Assembly (NCBI GenBank): GCA_030064845.1
Contig: JASJEC010000005.1
Location: 61,451-125,450, forward strand
Reading direction: 5' to 3'
Origin: Kiloniellales bacterium
Lineage (GTDB): Bacteria; Pseudomonadota; Alphaproteobacteria; Kiloniellales; JAKSDN01
DNA length: 64,000 nt
The position numbers and the translations under genes are program-made. Positions 12 to 50,725 of this stretch are shown piece after piece. The number at the start of each line of letters is the position of its first letter. The first letter of the stretch is position 1. The notes under the pieces are model-generated. The model did no database searches. It was not told the origin of the DNA and saw nothing but the letters and a program-made list of their open reading frames with translations.

Positions 12-440
12 ATGACCGGCGCGCTCGACAGCATGATCCGGCTGCACCGCTGGATGCTCGACGAGAAACGGCGCAGCCTCGCCGACCTGCAGGTCTTCGC
101 CGAGAAGCTGAAGGACGACATGACCCAGCTGGACCGGGACCTGGAGCGAGAGAGCGACGCCCTGGAGGACGAGGGCACGGTCGCCCTGGCCTATCCGACC
201 TTTGTCGCCGTGGCCCTGGAACGGCGCCAGAAGCTCAGCGACTCCATCGCTAACCTCGAAACCGAGATCGAGGCGGCCCGCGAGGAGGTCGCCGAAGCTT
301 TCCGCGAACTCAAGCGGTTCGAGGCAGCAAGAGACTCCCAGCAGGCCCAGGCCAAGGCCGAACGGGCGCGGCGTGAGCGCATCAACCAGGACGAGCTGGC
401 GGTCGGGCTCTATCGGCGCAGCCGCAGCAAGAGCGCCTAG
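12..440 (+). CDS. fliJ: Flagellar export protein FliJ (alphaproteobacterial type)
   Basis: 142-aa charged coiled-coil ORF (LHRWMLDEKRRSLADLQ...EIEAAREEVAEAFRELKRFE) of the FliJ type, in a flagellar region; TAG stop at 438-440. Confidence 0.6.
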   Translation: MTGALDSMIRLHRWMLDEKRRSLADLQVFAEKLKDDMTQLDRDLERESDALEDEGTVALAYPTFVAVALERRQKLSDSIANLETEIEAAREEVAEAFRELKRFEAARDSQQAQAKAERARRERINQDELAVGLYRRSRSKSA

Positions 441-446
441 CCGGCT

Positions 447-578
447 GTTGAGTGCTTCGCCGGCACCATCACCCTTCGACAGGGTCAGGGTGAGGGCGAA
501 GCATTTCAGAAACATACCCTCATCCTGAGCTTGTCGAAGGATGACCGTGGTCGAGCGCTCAGGAGTTTCTCAGCACCC
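447..578. repeat. Palindromic intergenic repeat, family C, copy 1 of 2 (boundaries approximate)
   Basis: Core gccggcaccatcacccttcgaca.g.tcagggtgagg ... accctcatcc ... cttgtcgaaggatgaccgtg is shared with 34828-34960. The two arms are complementary (long imperfect hairpin). Lies between convergent fliJ and the 581-2305 gene. Confidence 0.7.
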
Positions 579-580
579 TG

Positions 581-2305
581 CTAGATCACCAGGTTCGGGC
601 CGCGCTCGGCCGGATGGCTGCCGGCGGGTTCGATCGCGGCCCAGTCCTCGGCGGTCTGGAAACCTATTCGGCCCTTCGCGCCGGTGATGGCGTTGGCTTC
701 CTGGAAGATCGCCGCGATATCGCTGCGCAGCCGGCTGCCGAGGAGGCGTCTGCTGCGCAGAATGAGGTCGAAGCGCTCGCCCGTCACCAGGCCGTCGAGC
801 TGCAGCTCGCCCAGGCGCGAGAGCGCAAGTTCCACGACGAAACGTGTCGCGCGCGGCCCGGAATCGTCGCCGGGCCGCGCCGGCTTGCGGCGCAGGTAGA
901 AGTGGACCGGCATCACCGCGCCCTCGTGAACGAGCGGAAGGGCGAGCAGGCGCCAGTCGCCGCCCGGCGTTTCCGCCTGGCGGCTCATCTGGTTGAACTC
1001 CTGGCCGAGGCGGGTCACGAGCTCGGCGCGGCCGAGACGCTCCAGGCGCTCCAGGGCGCCGCTGCCCAGCCAGGCCGGCAGCGACCCGCCGCTGAGCGCG
1101 CTCATCAGGAACAGCAGGCCCGAGCCCAGCCGGGGTCCCGTGCGCGGCACGAGCTCCGCCGGGCCGGCGTTGCTCGGCGGCCCGGCTGCGGGCCCGGCCT
1201 CCTCCGTGGCCAGGACCTGCAAGGCCTCGACCAGGGCCGGCCAGCCCCGGTTCGCCGGTTCGGCGGCCGCGGGCCTCGGCCCCGCCGCGGGCAGCTGGAG
1301 CGCGAGGCCTACCCGGTCGCCGGCCGCCAGGCCGGCCTGGGGCGCCAGGAGCAGCTTGCCGAGGGGGGTGGCGACGACGACGCGGCCGTCTCTGGTGGTG
1401 GCGGTGACCCGGCCGTCCACCATCGGCTGCAGGAGCGGACGTGTGCCCGCGACGATGCTCTCGGGCGGTGTGGCGACGGTCCGCTGCGGGGCGGGCGCGG
1501 CGGACGGCCCCGGGGGCGGGGGTGCGGCCGAAGCCCCGGCCGGCGCGGCCTGTGGGCCGCGCGGGGCCGTGATAGCTTGGGTCGGGGCCGCTTGGGCCGG
1601 GGCCGCTGGCGTGGGTCGCACCGGGACAGGCGCGCCGCTGCGCTCCAGCGCCGGCACCGGCTGCTTGATGACCGGCGCGTCGGCTGCCGGCGGGTTCGCG
1701 GGGAGGCCTCCAGGCGCCGCGGCGGGCCGGCCGGCAGCACCGATCGGCGGCGGGGTTTCGGACAGAAGAGAAAGGACGCGGACGGCGATCCGGGCGCCCG
1801 GCCGCAGCTCCGGCATGCCCGGCCGATTAGCGGCCTCGCCCGGGGCGGGCCCGGCGAGCACGGTCGCGGTGATTGCCGGCTGCCGCCCGACCGTGTCCTG
1901 CGGGCCGGCGGCCGGGACCCGGAGCTCCGTGGCCGCGCCGCCGCGGTCGCCCGCCGCCGGCCGGGACGGGGGCGGCTGGACCGAGGGCGGCGTCGGCGGT
2001 CGGTCGCCCTCCGCGGGTTGCGGCAGGATGACCAGGGCGCCGCCGGATCCGCTCGGGAGCTGGACCAGGACGGTCCGCAGGGCGGCCGGGGCGTTGCGGG
2101 CGGCGACCTCGAGATCGCCGAGCGCCGTCGCGATGACGATCGTCCCCCCGGCGCCGCGCCCGGCGACCAGGCCGCGCAGCAGGCTACCGGCGGGAAGCTC
2201 CGCCAGCGCCTCGGGGGCCGAGACCAGGGTTCCCTTGACCGCAGGCTCCGGCGTCGCCGGGGCGCCGGCGGGGGGGCGCGGCGGCGCGGGCGGGACCCCG
2301 CTCAC
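581..2305 (-). CDS. Pro/Ala-rich flagellar-cluster protein with FliK-like C-terminal region (function unproven)
   Basis: 574-aa ORF. Its GTG start overlaps the flhG stop (GTGA at 2302-2305). C-terminus TRFVVELALSRLGELQLDGLVTGERFDLILRS resembles the hook-length-control C-terminal pattern; the rest is low-complexity P/A-rich. Confidence 0.55.
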   Translation of the reverse strand: MSGVPPAPPRPPAGAPATPEPAVKGTLVSAPEALAELPAGSLLRGLVAGRGAGGTIVIATALGDLEVAARNAPAALRTVLVQLPSGSGGALVILPQPAEGDRPPTPPSVQPPPSRPAAGDRGGAATELRVPAAGPQDTVGRQPAITATVLAGPAPGEAANRPGMPELRPGARIAVRVLSLLSETPPPIGAAGRPAAAPGGLPANPPAADAPVIKQPVPALERSGAPVPVRPTPAAPAQAAPTQAITAPRGPQAAPAGASAAPPPPGPSAAPAPQRTVATPPESIVAGTRPLLQPMVDGRVTATTRDGRVVVATPLGKLLLAPQAGLAAGDRVGLALQLPAAGPRPAAAEPANRGWPALVEALQVLATEEAGPAAGPPSNAGPAELVPRTGPRLGSGLLFLMSALSGGSLPAWLGSGALERLERLGRAELVTRLGQEFNQMSRQAETPGGDWRLLALPLVHEGAVMPVHFYLRRKPARPGDDSGPRATRFVVELALSRLGELQLDGLVTGERFDLILRSRRLLGSRLRSDIAAIFQEANAITGAKGRIGFQTAEDWAAIEPAGSHPAERGPNLVI

Positions 2306-3102: not shown

Positions 3103-4085
3103 GGATCGGTCCCTGTCGCTGGAAGGGTTGCGGGTCTGGGCGGCCGAACGCCGGAGAGCAGGAGGCGGGCCAGGGAAACGGGGTTCACGGCGGTCAAGCC
3201 GCCGCCGATCGTGGGCGAGATGCCGACGCCGCAGAGCACGAGACCGCCGGCGTCCGCGGCGCTCAGGATGCCGCCGAGACGCCGCGTCGTGTCCAGCTTG
3301 GTGGCGATCAGGCTGCGGGCGCCCCAGGCGGCGAAGATCTCGGCCCACTCGGCCGCCTCCAGCACGTCGCCGCCGGCGCCCATGACCAGGACCACGTGCG
3401 CCGAGACGGCCTCGGCGGCCTCGGCCAGCGCGGCGCCCGCCCGGTCGTCGAGCGGATTGCAGCCGGGCGTGTCGATCACCACGAGGCCCTCGAGCGGACC
3501 GGGCGTCACCAGGGCCGCCAGCTGCTCGACCGTCTCGGCCTTCCTGAGCGGCGCCTCCAGCGCCTCGGCGAAGGCTACGATCTGCGACAGCCCGCCCGCC
3601 TTGTCGGCATCCATGGTGACCAGGCGGACGGTCTCGCCGATCTCCTGGCGGAACCGCGCGCAGAGCTTGGCGGCGGTCGCCGTCTTGCCGGCGCCCGGCG
3701 GTCCGATCAGCATGACCGGCCGGCCGTCGGCGCCGTCCGGCGGCGTGGCGAAGCGGAAGACGGCGTCGATCGCTCCGCCCAGGGCCATCGAGCCCTCCGG
3801 CGCCGGCAGCTCCCCGGCCGCCGCCAGAAGGCGGTCGGCCAGGCCCAGGGGCACCCGGTGATGCTCCAGCGCGTCGGCCAGACGATCGAGCGAATCGAGA
3901 GGCTCCGGCGCGGCGCCCTGCTCCAGCGCCGAGAAGGCCTCGTCTTCCAGCGCCGCGGTGATCTTGACCTTGCCGGTGACGGAATCGTTTTGGGTCGAGA
4001 GGATCACCGCGTCATCGCCGAGCTGGGCGCGGACCATGGCCATGGCCTCGGGAACGCTGGACGCTATGAAACTCTTAAGGCGCAT
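3099..4085 (-). CDS. flhF: SRP-type GTPase FlhF
   Basis: GTPase motifs LIGPPGAGKTATAAKL, IDTPG and TKLD; located between flhA and flhG. Confidence 0.85.
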   Translation of the reverse strand: MRLKSFIASSVPEAMAMVRAQLGDDAVILSTQNDSVTGKVKITAALEDEAFSALEQGAAPEPLDSLDRLADALEHHRVPLGLADRLLAAAGELPAPEGSMALGGAIDAVFRFATPPDGADGRPVMLIGPPGAGKTATAAKLCARFRQEIGETVRLVTMDADKAGGLSQIVAFAEALEAPLRKAETVEQLAALVTPGPLEGLVVIDTPGCNPLDDRAGAALAEAAEAVSAHVVLVMGAGGDVLEAAEWAEIFAAWGARSLIATKLDTTRRLGGILSAADAGGLVLCGVGISPTIGGGLTAVNPVSLARLLLSGVRPPRPATLPATGTDP

Positions 4086-4095
4086 CTCTCGCTGC

Positions 4096-6210
4096 TCAAA
4101 TCTGGCCCAAGGTCTTGATCTTCACCTTGGCGTGTATCTCGTTCTGGGACAGAACCGCGGTCTCTGGTCGGAAGCGCTCGACGATCGAGCGCACGTAGTG
4201 GCGGATGCCCGGCGAGCAGAGCAGGGCCGGGCTCTCGCCCGACGCGGCGTGCTGCGCGAAGGCCTGCCGGACCTCGACGATGAAGTCCTGCAGTTGGGAC
4301 GGGGCCAGGGATAGACGGCGATCCTCGCCTTCGCCCACCAGGGAGTCGGCGAAGGCCTGCTCCCATCGGGCTGACAGGGCGACCAGGGGAATGTAGCCAT
4401 CGGGGTTGAGCAGGCCATGGGAGATCTGGCGGGCCAGGCGGGCGCGCACGTGCTCGGTGATCGCGCCGATGTTGCGCGTGAAGCTGCAGGCCTCGGAGAT
4501 GCCCTCCAGGATGGTCGAGAGGTCGCGGATCGAGATCCGCTCCGACAACAGGTTCTGCAGGACCCGCTGGACGCCGCCCAGGGCGATCTGGTTGGGGATC
4601 ATGTCGGCGATCAGCTTCTGCTGATCGGAGCCGAGCTCGTCGAGCAGCTTCTGGGTCTCGGCGTAGGACAACAGCTCGGGCATGTTGTCCTTGATGATCT
4701 CGGTCAGGTGCGTGGCGATCACGGTCTGCGGGTCGACCACGGTGTAGCCGCGGAATAGGGCCTCCTCGCGCTGGCCGGCGTCGATCCAGCGCGCCGGCAG
4801 GCCGAAAGTCGGCTCGACGGTCTCCTCGCCGACCAGGCTGATCGGCTCGCCTTTTGGATCCATGACCAGCAGCATGTTGGGGCGCAGGTCGCCGCGGCCG
4901 GCATCGATCTCCTTGATCCGGATGACATAGGTGTTGGCGGCCAGCTGCAGGTTGTCCTGGATCCGCACCGACGGCAGGACGAAGCCCATGTCCTGGGCGA
5001 GCTGCCGGCGCAGGGCCTTGATCTGGTCGGTGATCTTCTGTCCGACCTGGTCGTGGATCAGGCCGAGCAGGCCGTAGCCGAGCTCGAGACGAACGTGGTC
5101 GATCTGCAGCGCGTGGGCGATCGGCTCCTCGGCGGCCTGGGCCTGCGGCGCGCTCGACCGCTCGGCCTCGACCCGGGCCTGCTCCGCCTCCTCCTGGCGC
5201 CTGGTCAGCAGCCAGGCGGAACCGCCCGAGAGCGCGGCCAGCATGATGAAGGGGAGGAACGGGATTCCCGGCAGGAGCGCCAGCGCCGCCATGAGAAAGG
5301 AGGAGAGGCCGAGCGCGCGGGGATAGGCGCCGAGCTGGCCGAACAGGGCCTTGTCGGTCGACCCCGTCGTGGCCGAGCGCGAGACCAGCAGGCCGGCCGC
5401 GGTCGAAACGATGATCGCCGGGATCTGGGTGACCAGCCCGTCGCCGACGGTCAGCACGGTGTAGCTCTCGCCCGCCTCGGAGAGGCTCAGGCCCATCTGC
5501 GCCGTGCCGATGATGATGCCACCGACGATGTTGATGAAGGTGATCAGCAGCCCGGCGATGGCGTCGCCGCGCACGAACTTGGCGGCGCCGTCCATCGCGC
5601 CGTAGAAGTTGCTCTCGTCCTCCAGGTCCCTGCGCCGCTGTCGCGCTTCGTTCTCGTCGATCAGGCCCGCCGAGAGGTCGGCGTCGATCGCCATCTGCTT
5701 GCCCGGCATGGCGTCGAGGCTGAAGCGCGCCGAGACCTCGGCGATACGGCCCGAGCCCTTGGTGATGACGATGAAGTTCACGATCACCAGGATGCCGAAC
5801 ACGATCATCCCGATGACGAAGTTGCCGCTCATGACGAAGTTGCCGAAGGCCTGAATGACCTTGCCGGCGGCGTCTGGACCGCGGTGACCCTCGGCCAGGA
5901 TCAGCCGGGTCGAGGCCAGATTGAGCGACAGGCGCAGCATGGTCGCGATCAGCAGAACCGTGGGAAACGAGCTGAACTCGAGCGGCCGGCTGATGAACAG
6001 CACGGTCATCAGGATCAGTACAGAGAAGGTGATCGAGAGCGCCAGGGAGATGTCGAGCAGCCAGCTCGGCATCGGCAGAATGAGCACGACCAGGATGCAG
6101 ACAACGCCGAGGGCGAGGGCGACGTCGCCCCGGCGCAGCGCCTTCAGGATCTGGCCGAAGCCGTCGCCGGTTCTGCCGCCGAGTTCGTCCTGCGATGCCG
6201 TGTCGGACAT
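4096..6210 (-). CDS. flhA: Flagellar type III export gate protein FlhA
   Basis: 704 aa with an N-terminal polytopic region (GDGLVTQIPAIIVSTAAGLLVSR) and a large cytoplasmic domain, full-length FHIPEP-family pattern. Confidence 0.95.
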   Translation of the reverse strand: MSDTASQDELGGRTGDGFGQILKALRRGDVALALGVVCILVVLILPMPSWLLDISLALSITFSVLILMTVLFISRPLEFSSFPTVLLIATMLRLSLNLASTRLILAEGHRGPDAAGKVIQAFGNFVMSGNFVIGMIVFGILVIVNFIVITKGSGRIAEVSARFSLDAMPGKQMAIDADLSAGLIDENEARQRRRDLEDESNFYGAMDGAAKFVRGDAIAGLLITFINIVGGIIIGTAQMGLSLSEAGESYTVLTVGDGLVTQIPAIIVSTAAGLLVSRSATTGSTDKALFGQLGAYPRALGLSSFLMAALALLPGIPFLPFIMLAALSGGSAWLLTRRQEEAEQARVEAERSSAPQAQAAEEPIAHALQIDHVRLELGYGLLGLIHDQVGQKITDQIKALRRQLAQDMGFVLPSVRIQDNLQLAANTYVIRIKEIDAGRGDLRPNMLLVMDPKGEPISLVGEETVEPTFGLPARWIDAGQREEALFRGYTVVDPQTVIATHLTEIIKDNMPELLSYAETQKLLDELGSDQQKLIADMIPNQIALGGVQRVLQNLLSERISIRDLSTILEGISEACSFTRNIGAITEHVRARLARQISHGLLNPDGYIPLVALSARWEQAFADSLVGEGEDRRLSLAPSQLQDFIVEVRQAFAQHAASGESPALLCSPGIRHYVRSIVERFRPETAVLSQNEIHAKVKIKTLGQI

Positions 6211-6249
6211 GGCTGGGGGCTATCTCCCGCGCTGCTCTCGCCCGGCGCC

Positions 6250-7641
6250 TCAGGCCGGCGCCCGCTCGCTCTCGCCGGGTGCGGGCACGCGTATGCCGTC
6301 CTGGCTGTAGAGCTTGAGCTTGTTGCGCAGCGTGCGGATCGAGATGCCGAGGATGTTGGCGGCGTGGGTCCGGTTGCCGAGGCAGTGCTCCAGCGTGTCG
6401 AGGATCAGGTCCCGCTCGACGTCGGCCACGGTCCGACCGACCAGCCCGCGCATGGTCGCGGCCTCCCCGTCGGCCGCGCCGTCGCCGCCCGCCTTCGGGC
6501 GCTCGCCCGCGGCGGCCCGGTCGCCGGCCTCGGCCGCCAGCGCGCCGCCGGTCAGGACGATGGCGCCGGCCGTGACCCGGCCGTCCTCGGCCAGAAGGAC
6601 CGCCCGGTGCATGGTGTTCTCGAGCTCGCGGACGTTGCCGCGCCAGCTGTGTGCCTGGAGCGCCACAAGGGCTTCAACCTCCAGGGACGGCTTGGCGACG
6701 CCGTTGGCCTCGGCGTACTTGGCTAGGAAATGCTCGGCCAGGACCTCCAGGTCGCGCGGCCGCTTGCGCAGAGGCAGCAGCGCGATGTTGACCACATTGA
6801 GCCGGAAGAAGAGGTCCTCGCGGAAACGGCCCTGGCGCACTTCCTCAACGAGGTCACGGTTCGAGGTGGCGACCAGGCGGATGTCGACCTTGATCGGCTG
6901 GGTGCCGCCGACCCGGTCGATTTCCATCTCCTGGATGGCGCGCAGCATCTTGGCCTGCAGCCGCGGATCCATCTCCGAGATCTCGTCGAGCAGCAGCGTG
7001 CCGCCATGAGCCTCCTCGAACTTGCCGATCCGCCGGGCGACGGCGCCGGTGAAGGCGCCCTTCTCGTGCCCGAACAGTTCCGACTCGAGCAGATTGTCGG
7101 GGATCGCCGCGCAGTTGACCGAGATGAAAGGCTTGTTGGCGCGCTTGGAGCGGCTGTGGATGTAGCGCGCCATGACCTCCTTGCCGGTTCCCGACTCCCC
7201 GGTGATCAGCACGCTCGCGCTGGCCGGCGCGATCTGCTCGGCGAGCTTCAGGATGCCGCCCATGGCGGGGTCGCGGGTGATGAAGGCGTTGGTCTCCTCG
7301 ACCACCGCCGCCAGCACCGCCGCGATCAGCTCGGGGTCAGGCGGCAGCGGCAGGTATTCCTTGGCGCCGGCGCGGATCGCGGTGACCGCGCGGTCGGTAT
7401 CGTTGCCGATGCCGCAGGCGACGACCGGGATGGAGATGCGCTCGGATTCCAGACGGGTGATCAGCTCCCCGACATCGAGCACGACATCGGCGAAGACCAG
7501 ATCGGCGCCCTGGCCGGAACGCAGCGCCGCGAGCGCGGCGCCCACGTCGGAGACGTGGGCGACCTTGGCGCCGCGGTCCAGCGCGATCTTGCCGGCGGCG
7601 GCGATGTGCCCTTCCAGGGTTCCAACGATGAGAAGCCGCAT
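6250..7641 (-). CDS. flbD: Sigma-54-dependent flagellar activator FlbD
   Basis: Receiver-like N-terminus MRLLIVGTLEGH..., AAA+ core GESGTGKE / ELFGHEKGAFTGA, and C-terminal HTH NILGISIRTLRNKLK. Closely resembles Caulobacter FlbD as I recall it. Confidence 0.9.
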   Translation of the reverse strand: MRLLIVGTLEGHIAAAGKIALDRGAKVAHVSDVGAALAALRSGQGADLVFADVVLDVGELITRLESERISIPVVACGIGNDTDRAVTAIRAGAKEYLPLPPDPELIAAVLAAVVEETNAFITRDPAMGGILKLAEQIAPASASVLITGESGTGKEVMARYIHSRSKRANKPFISVNCAAIPDNLLESELFGHEKGAFTGAVARRIGKFEEAHGGTLLLDEISEMDPRLQAKMLRAIQEMEIDRVGGTQPIKVDIRLVATSNRDLVEEVRQGRFREDLFFRLNVVNIALLPLRKRPRDLEVLAEHFLAKYAEANGVAKPSLEVEALVALQAHSWRGNVRELENTMHRAVLLAEDGRVTAGAIVLTGGALAAEAGDRAAAGERPKAGGDGAADGEAATMRGLVGRTVADVERDLILDTLEHCLGNRTHAANILGISIRTLRNKLKLYSQDGIRVPAPGESERAPA

Positions 7642-24283: not shown

Positions 24284-24436
24284 GTTCCGCTCGGTCCCCG
24301 CTGCGCCCAGATTTCTGCGCGGCGACGAGGGCGGGGTCGCCGTCCGGATGGCTGCAGGAATGACGGCGCTCATGGGCATGGCCTGGCGATTGACACTGGC
24401 CACGTCTATGCCGAGGAGAACTGGCTCCAGGATGTT

Positions 24437-24520
24437 CCGCTCTACATAATAGGTTTAGAGCAGATTCACCGGGTTGATGGACCGCCCGTGGCGATTCCAT
24501 CAAACCTGGATCTGCTCTAG
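24437..24520. repeat. Twin-hairpin element locus 1: truncated B unit end + 11-bp spacer + full A unit
   Basis: A unit 24456-24520: tagagcagattcaccgggttgatggaccgcccgtggcgattccatcaaacctggatctgctctag. It is preceded by spacer cataataggtt and by gatgttccgctcta (B 3' end only). Confidence 0.8.
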
Positions 24521-25311
24521 GGCTTTCGCGCTCTGAGGTGCGTCGGTCTGAGTTCGCCCCGATCGAGGACGACGATCATCTTTTTCCACACATCGACCTG
24601 TCGATCCAAGAACTGCTTGCCGACGGTGGATTCGAGATTCGCGTGCAAGGCACCGGTGAGGTTCTCCAGCTCACGGCGCGCCTCTTGCCTGTACCAGGCG
24701 TTGCGGTCGGTCACCTCGATGTCGTCGAAACCCGCCGCTTCCAACGCCGCCTGGTAGACGGCCGCGGAGGCGAGGCCGAAGTCCAGACCTTCGGCGGAGA
24801 CGTAGGCCTGCATGTCGGGCGAAGGCGCACCCGAGTAGCCGGCCAGCCAATCGCTCGCAGCAAACAAACCTCCGGGTTTCAGGCACCGGAAGATGTCCTC
24901 AGCAAGGGCATGCTTGTCGGCGATATGAATGATCGAGTCCTTGCTGAACACCATATCGAGGCTGGCGTCCTCGACGGGGAGTGGCCCGGGCTCGACACGG
25001 CGGAACCGGATCACGTCCGACAAACCGGATCGCGCCGCCAGCTTATCGCAGGCCTCGATCAAGTTGCTCTCGATGTCGATACCGATGATTCCCGCAACAC
25101 CGTAGCGGCTGGCGATATGTACCGTCGCGCCACCGATGCCGCAGCCGATATCGAGCACGGATAGAGCGGTCAGATCCAGGCCGTCGAGAATGCGGTCCAC
25201 TTCATCGGTGCCACCCGGCGACAGGAAACCCGCACCCCAAACCGCTTCCAGCACGGCGATCAGGTCGTCGTCATACTCCAGCTCCGGTTCGGTCTCATCG
25301 GGTGTAGTCAT
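24517..25311 (-). CDS. Class I SAM-dependent methyltransferase
   Basis: Motif I VLDIGCGIGG, then CLKPGGLF. ATG at 25311. The TAG stop (24517-24519) lies inside the repeat terminus. More A/T-ending codons than the flagellar genes. Confidence 0.8.
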   Translation of the reverse strand: MTTPDETEPELEYDDDLIAVLEAVWGAGFLSPGGTDEVDRILDGLDLTALSVLDIGCGIGGATVHIASRYGVAGIIGIDIESNLIEACDKLAARSGLSDVIRFRRVEPGPLPVEDASLDMVFSKDSIIHIADKHALAEDIFRCLKPGGLFAASDWLAGYSGAPSPDMQAYVSAEGLDFGLASAAVYQAALEAAGFDDIEVTDRNAWYRQEARRELENLTGALHANLESTVGKQFLDRQVDVWKKMIVVLDRGELRPTHLRARKP

Positions 25312-25447
25312 GAAGGCTCTCCATCTTCTTGCTTCCTGCGCTAACCTCGCCGTGCCCGATAGCGCTGCTGTGTCCGCTCGTGCCCCCGTCTCCTGACCCA
25401 CGAGCCGCTGACGGCGGCGCTCCGCCGGCACGATCCGGCGGCCACGC

Positions 25448-34827: not shown

Positions 34828-34960
34828 TGTGCTGAAAAAGTGCTCAGCCGGCACCATCACCCTTCGACAAGCTCAGGGTGAGGGGTGAATTTTTTCAAGC
34901 ACTGACCCTCATCCGCGCGCAGCGCCGGGCTTCGCCCCTTGTCGAAGGATGACCGTGATC
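34828..34960. repeat. Palindromic intergenic repeat, family C, copy 2 of 2 (boundaries approximate)
   Basis: Shares both arms with 447-578. The right arm carries a ~24-nt insertion. Lies between convergent MFS and GT2 genes. Confidence 0.7.
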
Positions 34961-35018
34961 AAAGGCCCCAGGCCTTCCAAAAAGCCTGCCGGACCGGTCG
35001 ACGGAAGAGAAAAGCGGG

Positions 35019-35839: not shown

Positions 35840-36529
35840 TCAGGGCCTGCAGGCGCCCTTGGAGCCCTGGCCGCAGGTCATGCCGTCGGTCCACACCGTG
35901 CCCCAGAGGTCGGCGCCGGCGAGGTCCGCGCCGGTCAGGTCGGCGCCCATCAGCACCGCCCCGGTCAGGTCGGCCTCGCGCAGGTCCGCGCCGCGCAGGT
36001 CGCTGCGCACCAGCTTGGCGGCGATCAGCCGGGCCCGGCTGAGATCGACCTGGCGGAGATCGGCCCCGTTCAGGACCGTTTCGACCAGGTTCGCGCCGTC
36101 GAGGCGGGCGCCTGACAGGGTCGCGCCGCTTAGGTCGGCGCGGTTCAGATAGGCGCCGCGGCTCAGGTCCGCCCCGGTCAGATTGGCCAGGCGCAGGCTG
36201 ACCCGGCTGAGGTCGGCGCCCTGCAGGTCGCAGCGGGTCAGGTCGGCGCCGTGGAAGTTCACCTTGCGCAGCACGGCGCGGGCCAGGGTCGCGTCGGCCA
36301 GGCGCCCTCCGCTCAGGTCGGTCTCCAGCAGGTAGGCGCCGGTCAGGTCGGCACCGGCGAGGTTGGCGCCCCTGAGGTCGCTGCGCGCAAGGTTCACGCC
36401 GGCCTTGTCGCATCCGCTCCAGTCGACCCCCGGTCCCGGCGGGTCGCTGCAGCCGGCGGTCGCCGGCGGCGGGAGCGCCGCGGCGGTCAGGGCCGCGGTC
36501 AGGAAGAGCGCGAGGTGTCTCGGTTTCAT
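35840..36529 (-). CDS. Secreted pentapeptide-repeat protein
   Basis: Signal peptide MKPRHLALFLTAALTAAALPPPATAGC (possible weak lipobox), then about 35 A(D/N)LxG-type pentapeptide repeats, and a Cys-containing C-terminus. Confidence 0.8.
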   Translation of the reverse strand: MKPRHLALFLTAALTAAALPPPATAGCSDPPGPGVDWSGCDKAGVNLARSDLRGANLAGADLTGAYLLETDLSGGRLADATLARAVLRKVNFHGADLTRCDLQGADLSRVSLRLANLTGADLSRGAYLNRADLSGATLSGARLDGANLVETVLNGADLRQVDLSRARLIAAKLVRSDLRGADLREADLTGAVLMGADLTGADLAGADLWGTVWTDGMTCGQGSKGACRP

Positions 36530-44010: not shown

Positions 44011-44145
44011 TTAGCCGTTCGACCACTTGACCTGGAACTCGATCTCCTCTTCCCCGTTGCCCAGCTCGTGCTCGACGGTGAATTCGGCGCGGACGGGGAG
44101 GTAGATCCGCTCTAGAATGTGCCGTTCGAAGGGGAGAGCGGTCAT
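44011..44145 (-). CDS. Unlisted 44-codon ORF (hypothetical)
   Basis: MTALPFERHILERIYLPVRAEFTVEHELGNGEEEIEFQVKWSNG; 38 of 44 codons end in G/C; no SD. Its ATG (44145-44143) interlocks with the ATG of the divergent methyltransferase (44144). Confidence 0.3.
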   Translation of the reverse strand: MTALPFERHILERIYLPVRAEFTVEHELGNGEEEIEFQVKWSNG

Positions 44146-44977
44146 GGCGAAGGAAGCGATTGTCGCCGCGCACTACGAGGCCGAAGGCCTGGTCGCGGCG
44201 ATCCGCGAGGGTCTGGAGCGCAGCGGCAAAGCGCCGAAAGCGGCGACCATCGAGGATCTCGCGCCGGTCGACGAGTTCCATATCGGCGGGCGCCAGGCTT
44301 CCGAGGACTTCCTCGGCCAGCTCGGCCTGAGCGCGGAAGATCACGTGCTCGACGTGGGGTCGGGCCTCGGCGGTCCGGCGCGCTACACCGCCCAGCGCTG
44401 GGGGGCGCGGGTGACCGGGATCGACCTGACGGCGGCCTTCGTCGAGACCGGTCGGGTCCTGACCGGCTGGGTCGGCCTCGACGAGCGGGTCGCGCTGCAC
44501 CAGGGCAGCGCGCTGACGACGGGCTTCGAGGACGCGGCTTTCGACGCGGCCTACATGCTGCATGTCGGCATGAACATCGCCGACAAGGAGGCGCTCTTCG
44601 CCGAGGTCGCGCGGGTCACCCGGCCGGGCGGGCTGTTCGGCGTCTACGACGTCATGGCCACGAGTGACGAGCCGCTCAGCTACCCCGTGCCCTGGGCCGC
44701 GACGCCGGAGACCAGCGCCCTGGCCGGTCCCGAGACCTACCGGCAGGCCCTGGCCGGGGCCGGCTTCGCCATCGTCGCGGAACGGGAGCGCCGCGGCTTC
44801 GCGCTCGACTTCTTCGCCACCTTGAGAAAGAAGACCGAGGCCGCCGGCGGACCGCCGCCGCTCGGCCTCCATCTGGTCATGGGCGAGAGCGCGCCGGTCA
44901 AGATCCGCAACATGGTCGAGAACATAACGGCCGGCCGCATCACGCCGGTCGAGATGATCGCGCGGAAAACCGGCTAG
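44144..44977 (+). CDS. Class I SAM-dependent methyltransferase
   Basis: Motif I VLDVGSGLGGPA, then VTRPGGLF. GGGGAG SD before ATG 44144. The TAG stop is part of the repeat terminus. Confidence 0.8.
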   Translation: MAKEAIVAAHYEAEGLVAAIREGLERSGKAPKAATIEDLAPVDEFHIGGRQASEDFLGQLGLSAEDHVLDVGSGLGGPARYTAQRWGARVTGIDLTAAFVETGRVLTGWVGLDERVALHQGSALTTGFEDAAFDAAYMLHVGMNIADKEALFAEVARVTRPGGLFGVYDVMATSDEPLSYPVPWAATPETSALAGPETYRQALAGAGFAIVAERERRGFALDFFATLRKKTEAAGGPPPLGLHLVMGESAPVKIRNMVENITAGRITPVEMIARKTG

Positions 44978-45116
44978 AGCAGATCCGGGTTTGACTGAAT
45001 CGCCGGAGGCGATCCATCAAACCCGGTGAATCTGCTCTAAACCTATGTCGTAGAGCGGATTCACATGTTTAGTTAGCAACCACGAAGTGGTTCCATCTAA
45101 ACATGATCCGCTCTAG
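44974..45116. repeat. Twin-hairpin element locus 2 (A unit 44974-45039, 11-bp spacer, B unit 45051-45116; inverted relative to locus 3)
   Basis: ctagagcagatccgggtttgactgaatcgccggaggcgatccatcaaacccggtgaatctgctcta / aacctatgtcg / tagagcggattcacatgtttagttagcaaccacgaagtggttccatctaaacatgatccgctctag. Confidence 0.85.
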
Positions 45117-45941: not shown

Positions 45942-45997
45942 CAGGTTAGGGCGCGTTCGCCGGGTCGATCCGAGCGGCCCGGCGACGCCGCGCTGCT

Positions 45998-48466: not shown

Positions 48467-48495
48467 GGCGGGATGACTTGGAACTGGAGAGCGTC

Positions 48496-50586
48496 ATGGC
48501 GAGCGACGGAGCATCCCCCTTCCACCCCGGAGAGCGGCAGGTCCAGGAACGGCTCGGAGTCCGTGACAAGATCGAGGACTTCGCCCGGCGCGTGGTGCGC
48601 GACCACATGCCCGACCAGCACCGCGACTTCTATGGCGAGCTGCCCTTCCTAATGCTCGGCACGGTCGACCGCCAGGGCAGGCCCTGGGCCTCGCTGGTCG
48701 CCGGCGGGCCGGGCTTCGTCTCGACGCCCGACGCGCGGACCCTGGCCGTTGCCGCGGCGCCCCTGTCCGGCGATCCGCTGCAGGAGACGCTGCAGCCCGG
48801 CGCCGACGTCGGAGTTCTCGGCATCCAGCTCGAGACGCGGCGCAGGAACCGGATCACCGGCAAGATCGCCTCGGTCGGGCCGGAGGGCTTCGAGATCGCC
48901 GTCGGTCAGGCCTTCGGGAACTGCCCGCAGTACATCCAGACCCGCGCGGTCTCGATGCGGCCAGATCGCGCGAGCGGCGCGGCGCCACCGCCTCCCGTTC
49001 GGTCGGACCGCTTCGACGAGCGCACCCGCGCCCTGATCGAAGCGGCCGATACGCTGTTCATCGCCACGGCTTACGCGGAAGACCCTGACACGCCGACCCA
49101 GGGGGCCGATGTCTCGCACCGCGGCGGCAAGCCGGGCTTCGTGCGCATCGAGGACGACCGCGGCTTCGAGTTTCCCGATTTCTCGGGCAACAACCATTTC
49201 AACACGGTCGGCAACATCCTGCTCAACCCGAAGGCCGGCTTCCTTTTCCTCGATTTCGAGACCGGCGACTACGTCACCATGAGCGGTTCGGCGGAGATCG
49301 TCTGGGAAGGCGACGAGGTCAAGGCCTTCACCGGCGCCGAGCGCCTGATCCGCTTCCGCGCCGAGACCGTGATCCGGGTCGAGGGCGGCCTGCCGCTCCG
49401 CTTCGACTTCGACAGCTATTCGCCCATGCTGGCCCATACGGGAAGTTGGGCGCGGGCCGCCGAGGCCATCGCGGCCGAGCGGGAGCGCAACCAGTACCTC
49501 GCCTATGACGTTGTCGACATCAGGCAGGAGAGCCAGGCGATCAAGTCCTTCACCCTGCGCCGGGCCGACGGCAAGGCCCCGGCCGGCTACGAGCCGGGCC
49601 AGTACCTGCCGATCCGCGTCCAGCTTCCGGGCACGGACTCGCCCGCGCTGCGCACCTACACCGTGTCCCAGGCGCCCGACGGCGAGACCTATCGCCTCTC
49701 GGTGAAGCGCGAGGGGGGCGACGCGCTGGTCTCCCAGTTTCTGCACGACCGGGTCGAGACCGGCTTCCGTCTCGAAGCCATGGCGCCGCGCGGCCACTTC
49801 GTGCTGGACCGAGCGAGCGAACGCCCCGTGGTGCTGATTTCCGGCGGGGTGGGGATAACGCCGATGATGGCCATGGTGGAATCGATCGTGCAGGAGGCGG
49901 CGCGCACCCGGAACCGACGCCCGACCTACTTCGTACACGGCGCGCGGAACGGCGGGCTCCTGGCTTTCGGCGCGCGTCTTCGGATGCTCGCCGAGGAGAA
50001 CGATTTCCTCACGACCCACATCCGTTTCAGCGACCCCGGCCCCGGCGACCGCCTCGGCGAGAGCCACGACAGCGAGGGACGGGTCGACGTCGGCCTGCTG
50101 AAATCGCTGCTGCCGCTGGACGACTACGACTTCTACCTCTGCGGCCCGGCGGCCTTCATGCAGGCGCTCTACGACGGCCTGGTCGGCCTGGGGATTCGGG
50201 ATGAGCGGATCCACTACGAGTCCTTCGGCCCTGCCACGGTCTTGAAGCACGACCCCGAGCCGGCGCGGCCGCCGGCCACGGGGAAGACGGTCGACGGACC
50301 CGTGGCCGTGCGTTTCGCCGAGTCCGAGTCCGAGGCCGAATGGTCGCCGGAAAAGGGAACGCTGCTGGAACTGGCCGAGCAGGCGGGGCTGGCACCGGCC
50401 TTCTCCTGCCGGAGCGGAGTCTGCGGCACCTGCGCGACCCGCATGCTCTGCGGCGCGGTCGACTACCTCGAGGAACCGAGCGGGCCGAGAGCCGACGACG
50501 AGGTGCTGATCTGCTGCGCGACGCCGCGGCCCGGCGCCGGCGCCGCCTCCTGCGGCGAGGACCAGGGAGTCGTGCTCGCTCTCTAG
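48496..50586 (+). CDS. Three-domain oxidoreductase: PNPOx-like FMN domain + FNR-like FAD/NAD(P) domain + 2Fe-2S ferredoxin
   Basis: N-terminus FHPGERQVQERLG... and GGKPGFVRI. RTYTVS and VLISGGVGITPMMAM. C-terminus CRSGVCGTCATRMLCG. ATG 48496. The TAG stop is part of the repeat terminus. Confidence 0.8.
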   Translation: MASDGASPFHPGERQVQERLGVRDKIEDFARRVVRDHMPDQHRDFYGELPFLMLGTVDRQGRPWASLVAGGPGFVSTPDARTLAVAAAPLSGDPLQETLQPGADVGVLGIQLETRRRNRITGKIASVGPEGFEIAVGQAFGNCPQYIQTRAVSMRPDRASGAAPPPPVRSDRFDERTRALIEAADTLFIATAYAEDPDTPTQGADVSHRGGKPGFVRIEDDRGFEFPDFSGNNHFNTVGNILLNPKAGFLFLDFETGDYVTMSGSAEIVWEGDEVKAFTGAERLIRFRAETVIRVEGGLPLRFDFDSYSPMLAHTGSWARAAEAIAAERERNQYLAYDVVDIRQESQAIKSFTLRRADGKAPAGYEPGQYLPIRVQLPGTDSPALRTYTVSQAPDGETYRLSVKREGGDALVSQFLHDRVETGFRLEAMAPRGHFVLDRASERPVVLISGGVGITPMMAMVESIVQEAARTRNRRPTYFVHGARNGGLLAFGARLRMLAEENDFLTTHIRFSDPGPGDRLGESHDSEGRVDVGLLKSLLPLDDYDFYLCGPAAFMQALYDGLVGLGIRDERIHYESFGPATVLKHDPEPARPPATGKTVDGPVAVRFAESESEAEWSPEKGTLLELAEQAGLAPAFSCRSGVCGTCATRMLCGAVDYLEEPSGPRADDEVLICCATPRPGAGAASCGEDQGVVLAL

Positions 50587-50725
50587 AGCGGATCATGTCT
50601 TGACGGAAATGCTTCGCGATTTCGGCAAGAACATGTGAATCCGCTCGATATCAATTTGTTAGAGCAGATTCACCGGATTTGTCGGGTCGCCTTCGGCGAT
50701 TCCGTCAAACTTGGATCTGCTCTAG
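50583..50725. repeat. Twin-hairpin element locus 3 (B unit 50583-50648, 11-bp spacer, A unit 50660-50725)
   Basis: ctagagcggatcatgtcttgacggaaatgcttcgcgatttcggcaagaacatgtgaatccgctcga / tatcaatttgt / tagagcagattcaccggatttgtcgggtcgccttcggcgattccgtcaaacttggatctgctctag. Confidence 0.85.

Follow-up and report, generated by a model that had tools for sequence, protein, structure and literature searches.

Within the 64-kb stretch of DNA analysed here (the window), which comes from an uncultured Kiloniellales bacterium present in several metagenome assemblies, three genes end on TAG codons that are at the same time the edges of repeated sequences, and the locus raises the question of what these repeats are and how their boundaries came to coincide with stop codons. 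A preliminary description of the window took each repeat for a unit of 62-66 bp, derived from IS5-family elements and inserted at CTAG with duplication of 4 bp, and offered mobile terminator modules as the alternative. Here we show that the window holds three repeat clusters of one shared design, each of which starts precisely at the TAG that ends a gene (Table 1).

The repeated entity proved to be larger than the single unit first proposed. It is a doublet of ~143 bp, composed of two ~60-nt hairpins in inverted orientation with a 15-nt AT-rich spacer between them; spacer sequences are common to copies within one genome, which identifies the doublet, spacer included, as the entity that is repeated. 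Each unit reads TA/GAGCRGATTCAC, followed by ~40 nt of self-complementary sequence and GATCYGCTC/TA (slashes mark the edges of the core, which measures 60-61 nt). Two unit types are distinguished, type A (GAGCAG...CTGCTC) and type B (GAGCGG...CCGCTC), and the termini of the doublet read TA/GAGCRGATC...GATCYGCTC/TA. A covariance model of the family detects exactly five units in the window (57-75 bits, E <= 4e-14) and no sixth unit below E = 0.25, and the terminal 12-mer of the repeat occurs 14 times in the window versus 1.1 expected. The preliminary description had read all unit boundaries as CTAG, TTAG, GTAG or CTAA; nine of the ten are indeed YTAR, the exception being GCTCGA at 50644-50649. 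Its statement that CTAG is rare was borne out, as the window contains 34 such sites compared to the 184 expected from mononucleotide composition or the 91 expected from a Markov model. The host genome has a G+C content of 69%, and CTAG is among its rarest tetranucleotides.

Table 1. Positions of the repeat features of the window and of the genes that end on them (position 1 is the first letter of the window; scores are those of the covariance model).
Feature	Position	Strand	Score	Remarks
Locus 1, unit A	24455..24520	+	58 bits, E 2e-14	
Locus 1, core of unit A	24458-24517			GAGCAGATTCAC...GATCTGCTC; TA flanks
Locus 1, right boundary of unit A	24517-24520			CTAG; contains the MTase1 TAG stop (minus strand)
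Locus 1, spacer	24443-24457			TACATAATAGGTTTA
Locus 1, unit B	24433-24444	-		Terminal remnant only, TAGAGCGGAACA; partner decayed
Locus 1, spacer and remnant of unit B	24433..24457			Full unit not detected by the covariance model
Locus 2, doublet	44974..45116			Outer flanks CTA...TAG
Locus 2, unit A (reverse-complemented)	44974-45040 (core 44977-45037)	-	63 bits	
Locus 2, spacer	45038-45052			TAAACCTATGTCGTA
Locus 2, unit B (forward)	45050-45116 (core 45053-45113)	+	75 bits	
Locus 3, doublet (subtype 2)	50583..50725			Outer flanks CTA...TAG
Locus 3, unit B (reverse-complemented)	50583-50649 (core 50586-50646)	-	65 bits	
Locus 3, spacer	50647-50661			GATATCAATTTGTTA
Locus 3, unit A (forward)	50659-50725 (core 50662-50722)	+	57 bits	
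Possible decayed A-type unit	45942..45997			Fills the 56-nt AOX-HD gap; weak similarity, tentative
Methyltransferase 1 (MTase1), phosphoethanolamine N-methyltransferase-like	ORF 24517..25431, feature 24517..25311	-		
MTase1 stop	24519..24517	-		TAG; gene ends ...AAG CCC TAG
Methyltransferase 2 (MTase2)	44144..44977	+		277 aa; real start 44144
MTase2 stop	44975-44977	+		TAG; gene ends ...ACC GGC TAG; TA plus first G of the repeat
PNPOx-FNR-ferredoxin (Fer2) fusion gene	48478..50586	+		
PNPOx-FNR-Fer2 stop	50584-50586	+		TAG; gene ends ...GCT CTC TAG; repeat boundary

All three stop codons in the window consist of TA plus the first G of the repeat core (TA/GAGC...), and the preliminary description had placed each of them correctly as the TAG within a terminal CTAG. 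It was likewise right that the two methyltransferases, which are 28% identical, are only distantly related and are both followed by the same arrangement, namely a reverse-complemented unit A, a spacer and unit B. Its remark that most other genes of the window end in TGA applies only roughly (~29 of 53 crude gene calls). The positions of the three stops existed before the repeats, as had been supposed, since orthologues without the repeat terminate at that very codon, using TGA, TAA or TAG. Most MTase1 relatives end in ...RARKP, MTase2 relatives end in ...IARK plus 0-2 residues, and all PNPOx-FNR-ferredoxin orthologues end in ...VVL[ADE]L. A metagenome scan for relatives of the latter yielded 69 distant sequences without the repeat, with TGA in 32, TAA in 30 and TAG in 7; these are mostly 40-50% identical and are informative only on the ancestral position of the stop.

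The repeats of the window belong to a family that is widely distributed among marine Alphaproteobacteria. Using the pattern GAGCRGATTCAC-N(30-50)-GATCYGCTC on one genome per species, with the flanks left free on purpose, the family was found at at least 120 loci, mainly of Kiloniellales, Rhodospirillales and Thalassobaculaceae. Hosts among the matches listed were Kiloniellales/Kiloniellaceae, Rhodospirillales, Thalassobaculaceae, Acetobacteraceae, Reyranellales, Azospirillaceae and Geminicoccaceae MAGs, and the cultured hosts among them were Pelagibius litoralis, Denitrobaculum tricleocarpae and Aquibaculum sediminis. Pattern matches in Acidobacteria, Nocardia, Agrococcus and others lay inside genes, without TA flanks or hairpins, and were excluded as chance matches. 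Among the 137 units in the matches listed, TA was found on the right of 110 and on the left of 77, the right flank reading TAG in 72 and TAA in 27. Doublets follow the order reverse-complemented unit, spacer, forward unit, and are ~135-147 bp long; the AT-rich spacer measures 15 nt in 42 of the 62 doublets (14-16 nt in the family), and one A-type unit is paired with one G-type unit (GAGCAG with GAGCGG) in 53 of the 62.

The flanks of these 62 doublets carry a clear signature. TA adjoins 106 of the 124 outer ends (85%) and is preceded by a pyrimidine in 98 of those 106 (92%), the triplets being CTA (76), TTA (22), ATA (4) and GTA (4). On the spacer side, the dinucleotide beside the core is TA in 93 of 124 cases. 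G precedes TA in ~40% of inner but only ~4% of outer flanks, and the inner left flank of units is frequently GTAG. The YTAR/CTAG signature noted in the window is therefore a property of the whole family, as measured on copies found without fixing their flanks (YTA in 98 of 124 outer flanks). The accompanying proposal of a 4-bp YTAR duplication does not agree with these data: the base inside the TA is constant (TA/G...C/TA) with either outer flank, CTA/TTA or TAG/TAA, so any duplication comprises TA at most. Neighbouring elements have exactly one TA in common, as seen in the tandem doublets of one locus (L094) and in three pairs of plus- and minus-strand units separated by a 2-nt gap.

The association with gene ends also extends across the family. 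When coding-like ORFs (long, with an excess of GC3) that read toward an outer end and stop between -300 and +70 nt from it were collected, 31 of the 83 convergent ORF ends fell at offset 0, that is, on the boundary TAG, while any other offset received at most two, and the frame control gave 32, 3 and 1 stops in frames 0, 1 and 2, respectively. The enrichment at stop codons that the preliminary description had put forward for checking thus takes the form of a sharp spike. That the coincidence in the window arose by chance or from ORF calling, as just three cases in high-G+C DNA rich in spurious long ORFs might suggest, is for practical purposes already refuted by this spike and the frame control, and with hundreds of homologues of all three genes ending at the same residue its probability is negligible.

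Of the 62 doublets, 26 (42%) have an outer end that coincides precisely with the TAG of a coding-like ORF, and at two loci (L027 and L131) two convergent genes have their stops on both outer TAGs; more than half of the doublets make no contact with a gene end. Either unit type may face the gene, and the arrangement therefore has no polarity. In the same loci, 239 unoccupied CTAG sites are intergenic, 68 fall within coding sequence and 47 coincide with stops, based on crude GC3-based gene calls that provide an approximate background, and the share of stops expected from the non-disruptive sites, 47/(47+239), is a similarly crude 16%. Given a share of 42% in doublets versus ~16% available, target availability alone may fall short of explaining the enrichment; selection against promoter-side insertions could account for the difference.

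Comparison of orthologous sites indicates that copies appear, are replaced and decay. At locus 2, two loci of a ~90% identical lineage (L012 and L013) have kept both the A-spacer-B arrangement and the TAG stop, while one of a 93% lineage (L011) has lost unit A and the spacer, retains a decayed unit B and uses TAA. The doublet that occupies locus 3 in L134 and in the mosaic strain L003 belongs to the other subtype. Identity between the orthologous doublets of the window and L134 is 73%, whereas for each of them it reaches 86-87% with non-orthologous copies of another subtype or locus, which argues that the occupant of this site was replaced or inserted independently. Two further orthologues have no repeat and end in TGA (L135, 73% amino acid identity) or TAA (L136). 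L003 combines the window allele at locus 2 with the L134-type allele at locus 3 (L003 15677-15818 versus window 50583-50725), which points to recombination between lineages in this population.

Locus 1 presents a series of states. In L218 (83% amino acid identity) the gene ends CCC TAG GGT with no repeat, representing an unoccupied C-TA-G stop, with flanks too diverged to align with the window; the matching codon is TGA in L219 and, with repeat remnants after it, TAA in L217. In the closest relative (L216, 2150-2185), a TAA-to-CAA mutation has removed the MTase1 stop, and the ORF is extended by 8 codons to the TAG of a remnant unit boundary, which thus acts as a back-up stop. At a fourth site, the covariance model detected an intact subtype-2 doublet between convergent AOX and HD-domain genes in L013 (2988-3129) and L134 (151-292), its outer TAG being the stop of the HD gene; the corresponding codon of the window is TGA, and neither the window nor L011 has an intact doublet in this gap. 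Related genomes can thus carry copies at different positions or of different identity, as at the AOX-HD gap and in the subtypes of locus 3. Decay is seen in L011, L216, L217, L134 and unit B of locus 1 in the window, which argues against strong selection on each individual copy. The orthologous sites reached at the three loci and the AOX-HD gap included no clean filled/empty pair, being occupied, decayed or too diverged; insertion, TA duplication and a mobilising enzyme are accordingly what we infer from the copies rather than events read from near-identical flanks.

With a probability of roughly 0.55, we favour the reading that the clusters are copies of a non-coding, non-autonomous, MITE-like doublet that inserts at the TA of YTAR sites and regenerates TAG. 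Copies would integrate at such sites, mostly CTAG, with duplication of TA. The element begins with G on either strand, so that a gene entering either end would meet TA plus G and read TAG. Where the target TA belongs to a TAG or TAA stop already in place, insertion would then regenerate the stop at the same codon at no cost to the gene; insertions within genes or promoters would be purged by selection, and the survivors would be over-represented at stop codons and in intergenic DNA that is convergent or 3' of genes. By analogy, the closest chemistry may be the TA duplication of IS711 at YTAR, or an IS630-like CTAG/TA mechanism; IS630 targets CTAG and duplicates TA. The initial proposal of MITE-like insertion at CTAG is retained here as regards the YTAR flanks and the abutment on stops, and is changed as regards a single unit, a 4-bp duplication and an IS5 parent, for which no candidate was found.

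The last of these points rests on searches for a partner enzyme and among known families. In the ~1.3 Mb of loci, no autonomous element bounded by GAGCRGAT... was present, and IS-sized pairs of the terminal motif were neighbouring doublets only. Five IS5-family elements on alphaproteobacterial plasmids, retrieved with a transposase N-terminus as query, have TA flanks within CTA...TAG or GTA...TAG and a G directly after the TA; in this small sample the terminal inverted repeats (TIRs; GGCTCAGGACTCAT and similar) bear no relation to GAGCRGATTCAC, and these elements were rejected as parents. The degraded IS5/IS110 elements of L217 were set aside on the same grounds (TIR GGCTGTTGAAAAAGTC). Derivation from IS5 therefore found no support, as no IS with matching ends was encountered among these elements. 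Among 855 coding-like ORFs from 120 loci, no transposase or RAYT family recurs near the units, the only recurrent families being generic paralogues; for RAYTs, which are single-copy, this is a weak test. BLAST searches of PLSDB plasmids with the window doublet, an Azospirillaceae doublet and 47 diverse units returned no match, the short conserved cores making this an insensitive test. In the window, Rfam 15 gave zero matches at the gathering score and a permissive scan gave noise only (E > 1, miRNA models), and a full-text literature search for the core strings returned unrelated primers only.

Several other repeats and mobile elements were observed in the window and its relatives. The L217 elements comprise a degraded IS5/IS1182-like element, with a 13-nt perfect TIR (TGTTGAAAAAGTC) and a DUF772 fragment, adjoining an IS110-family transposase (4015-5630 and 5744-6775); the pair lies ~1 kb downstream of the MTase1 orthologue and is unrelated to the hairpin repeats. 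A second palindromic repeat of ~140 bp (CCGGCTGTTGAGTGC...CACCCTTCGACAGGGTCAGGGTGAGGG...CCCTCATCCTGAGCTTGTCGAAGGATGA...GCACCCTG) occupies window positions 437-584, with a further partial copy of its family at ~34830-34990. It has CTAG on both sides, the left one containing the TAG stop of a FliJ-like ORF (12..440, +) and the right one that of ORF 581..2305 (-, GC3 0.90), so two convergent genes end in the flanks of this family as well; its ends resemble IS5/IS1182-type TIRs (GGCTGTTGA). Periodicities of 15 and 30 nt at 35853-36401 (consensus AGGTCGGCGCCGGTC) probably mark a repeat-containing coding region, possibly of pentapeptide type. At Pseudomonas-like PNPOx loci (L184, L185, L192, L201 and L209), REP-like sequences (CCTGTAGGAGCTGCCGAAGGCTGCGATC...) begin a few bases at most from the TAA that ends the orthologous gene; this family is unrelated to the hairpin doublets, though it lies near the same gene end.

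The hairpins themselves bear on what moves or maintains the doublets. The fold of the locus 2 doublet comprises two hairpins (-82 kcal/mol, z -10.9), and in an alignment of 122 units, for which 24 stem pairs are predicted, compensatory double changes occur in 19 of the 24. The covariation reaches the terminal stem, where GAGCAG is paired with CTGCTC, GAGCGG with CCGCTC, GAGCAA with TTGCTC and GATCGG with CCGATC, and stems are still paired in orthologous copies in which the stem sequence has diverged by ~45%. The units also conserve an asymmetric 3-nt bulge (GAT-TCA-C opposite G-ATC), in every case on the side facing the spacer. Every core contains GATTC beside the spacer, and a second GATTC is often present in the upper stem; GATTC is a GANTC site, and GANTC is the methylation motif of CcrM. 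G.U pairs are equally rare on the two strands (72 and 82 of ~3240), which gives no pointer to one transcribed strand. No T-tract follows the hairpins, no terminator-like site overlaps the doublet, and the doublet tails read CTAGCGCC or CTAGCCTC; the hairpins are therefore not canonical intrinsic terminators, and the suggestion of mobile terminator modules fails in that form. The stem covariation is not predicted by a TIR that serves purely to bind a transposase; the arms of such a repeat need not pair, and the covariation instead suggests that a single strand is recognised in its folded form or that the hairpin has a function. Together, the bulge, the covariation and the excess over target availability keep two further readings alive, both of which can coexist with mobility.

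The first, which we consider unlikely though worth weighing, is that hairpin pairs are kept at gene ends for a host function, the TAG being part of a selected module of stop plus hairpin. Such hairpins might act as 3'-end mRNA stabilisers or processing sites, or, in view of the GANTC site for CcrM, as sites of host-factor binding or methylation. Conservation of the core across several alphaproteobacterial orders agrees with this reading, as do the high stability of the fold, the maintenance of pairing despite divergence between orthologues and the surplus of doublets at stops relative to crude availability; Caulobacter CcrM-associated intergenic repeats (CIRs), moreover, are also built of two arms and a linker and likewise have TA termini and a GANTC site that is conserved (PMC2229807). 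A module under selection is harder to reconcile with copies that decay or lose a unit in close relatives while the gene is unchanged, with the use of either unit type or end toward the gene and with the majority of doublets lying away from gene ends. The missing T-tract and the missing Rfam match also weigh against it.

A somewhat smaller probability attaches to the view that the doublets are REP/BIME/REPIN-like and spread, without target duplication, through a RAYT or other HUH/Y1 transposase that recognises hairpins. The TA(G) at the foot of the stem would then be a recognition or cleavage motif comparable to GTAG in REPs, and abutment on stops would reflect a preference for, or tolerance of, sites just past genes. 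Covariation of the whole hairpin including its terminal stem, the conserved asymmetric bulge, and the inverted pairing of two unit types across a fixed spacer, which resembles the Y and Z REPs of BIMEs, all speak for this view; so do the frequent GTAG of the inner left flank, the rarity of G.T pairs on both strands, as expected of a palindrome acting at the DNA level, and the fact that no DDE partner was found in the 120 loci (~1.3 Mb). REPs measure 20-40 nt, have a one-sided GTAG motif and cause no target duplication. The units described here are 60 nt long, about twice that size, and the pyrimidine before the outer TA in 92% of cases, symmetric at both ends, looks like a palindromic YTAR target; adjacent elements that have exactly one TA in common, and the failure of any RAYT-like ORF family to recur near units at the 120 loci (a weak test), also count against REP-like spread.

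More speculatively, and in our estimate improbable, the doublets may, rather than being passive MITEs, be structured DNA that a conserved alphaproteobacterial enzyme or host factor, possibly linked to GANTC/CcrM methylation, recognises as folded hairpins, and they may home preferentially to C-TAG stops and so constitute self-installing modules of stop codon plus 3' hairpin that can be swapped between gene ends.

If confirmed, these findings would establish a repeat family that appears to be undescribed and has a broad taxonomic range (Kiloniellales, Rhodospirillales, Thalassobaculaceae, Acetobacteraceae and others), and a clean example of how TA-in-YTAR specificity and the first base of an element can make insertions at stop codons neutral. 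The repeat would have shaped stop-codon usage, with TAG in genes whose orthologues use TGA or TAA, and its unit boundaries would be able to serve as back-up stops (as in L216). For annotation, the repeat is worth masking, as it can mislead the assignment of stop codons and 3'-UTRs. The covariation and the bulge further make the family a test case for DDE transposases versus hairpin-recognising enzymes as movers.

Among known systems, REP/BIME/REPIN sequences resemble the doublets as extragenic hairpins located after genes, with two types in inverted pairs, defined spacers and compensatory stems. They differ in that the doublets have symmetric YTA...TAR flanks, 60-nt units and no RAYT seen near the units; the conserved 5' GTAG typical of REPs is not a regular feature of the doublets, in which G precedes TA in ~40% of inner and ~4% of outer flanks. 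IS711 of Brucella reportedly duplicates TA at YTAR and prefers the palindromic Bru-RS repeats (PMC2266754, PMC3163539). IS711 and other IS5-family elements share with the doublets the YTAR target signature and TA at both ends, and the plasmid elements described above also have G after the TA, so that TAG is read inward as in the doublets; unlike these, IS711 and the IS5-family elements are autonomous and ~850 bp long, and no link of parent to derivative was found.

The doublets have the broad features of bacterial MITEs, being shorter than 200 bp and non-coding, with terminal inverted repeats and TA termini, and TA termini with TA duplication are typical of such elements (PMC2229807). Correia/NEMIS, ERIC and RUP elements share these features, have transcripts that form long stable stem-loops, and are mostly intergenic and often located just 3' of genes; they duplicate a TA target, with the transposase unproven (PMC2229807). 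Those elements fold end-to-end into one hairpin, whereas each half of a doublet forms its own; the doublets, in contrast, are G+C-rich except for the spacer, prefer YTAR/CTAG to plain TA, and begin with G, both ends reading TAG inward. The closest architecture is that of the CIRs, likened here by description: these alphaproteobacterial, intergenic, non-coding repeats of ~110 bp comprise a linker between two long stem-loop arms, have TA at their termini and conserve a GANTC site (PMC2229807), and are probably related to Bru-RS1/2 of Brucella. CIRs are described as having no TIRs and as carrying GANTC at the terminal loop, and the description makes no mention of stop-codon overlap (PMC2229807), while the doublets measure 135-147 bp, have clear terminal inverted cores and carry GANTC at the bulge at the foot of the stem. 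The doublets thus make up an apparently undescribed family, but one whose kind is already known from Correia, ERIC, CIR and BIME-like repeats; they do not constitute a new type of system.
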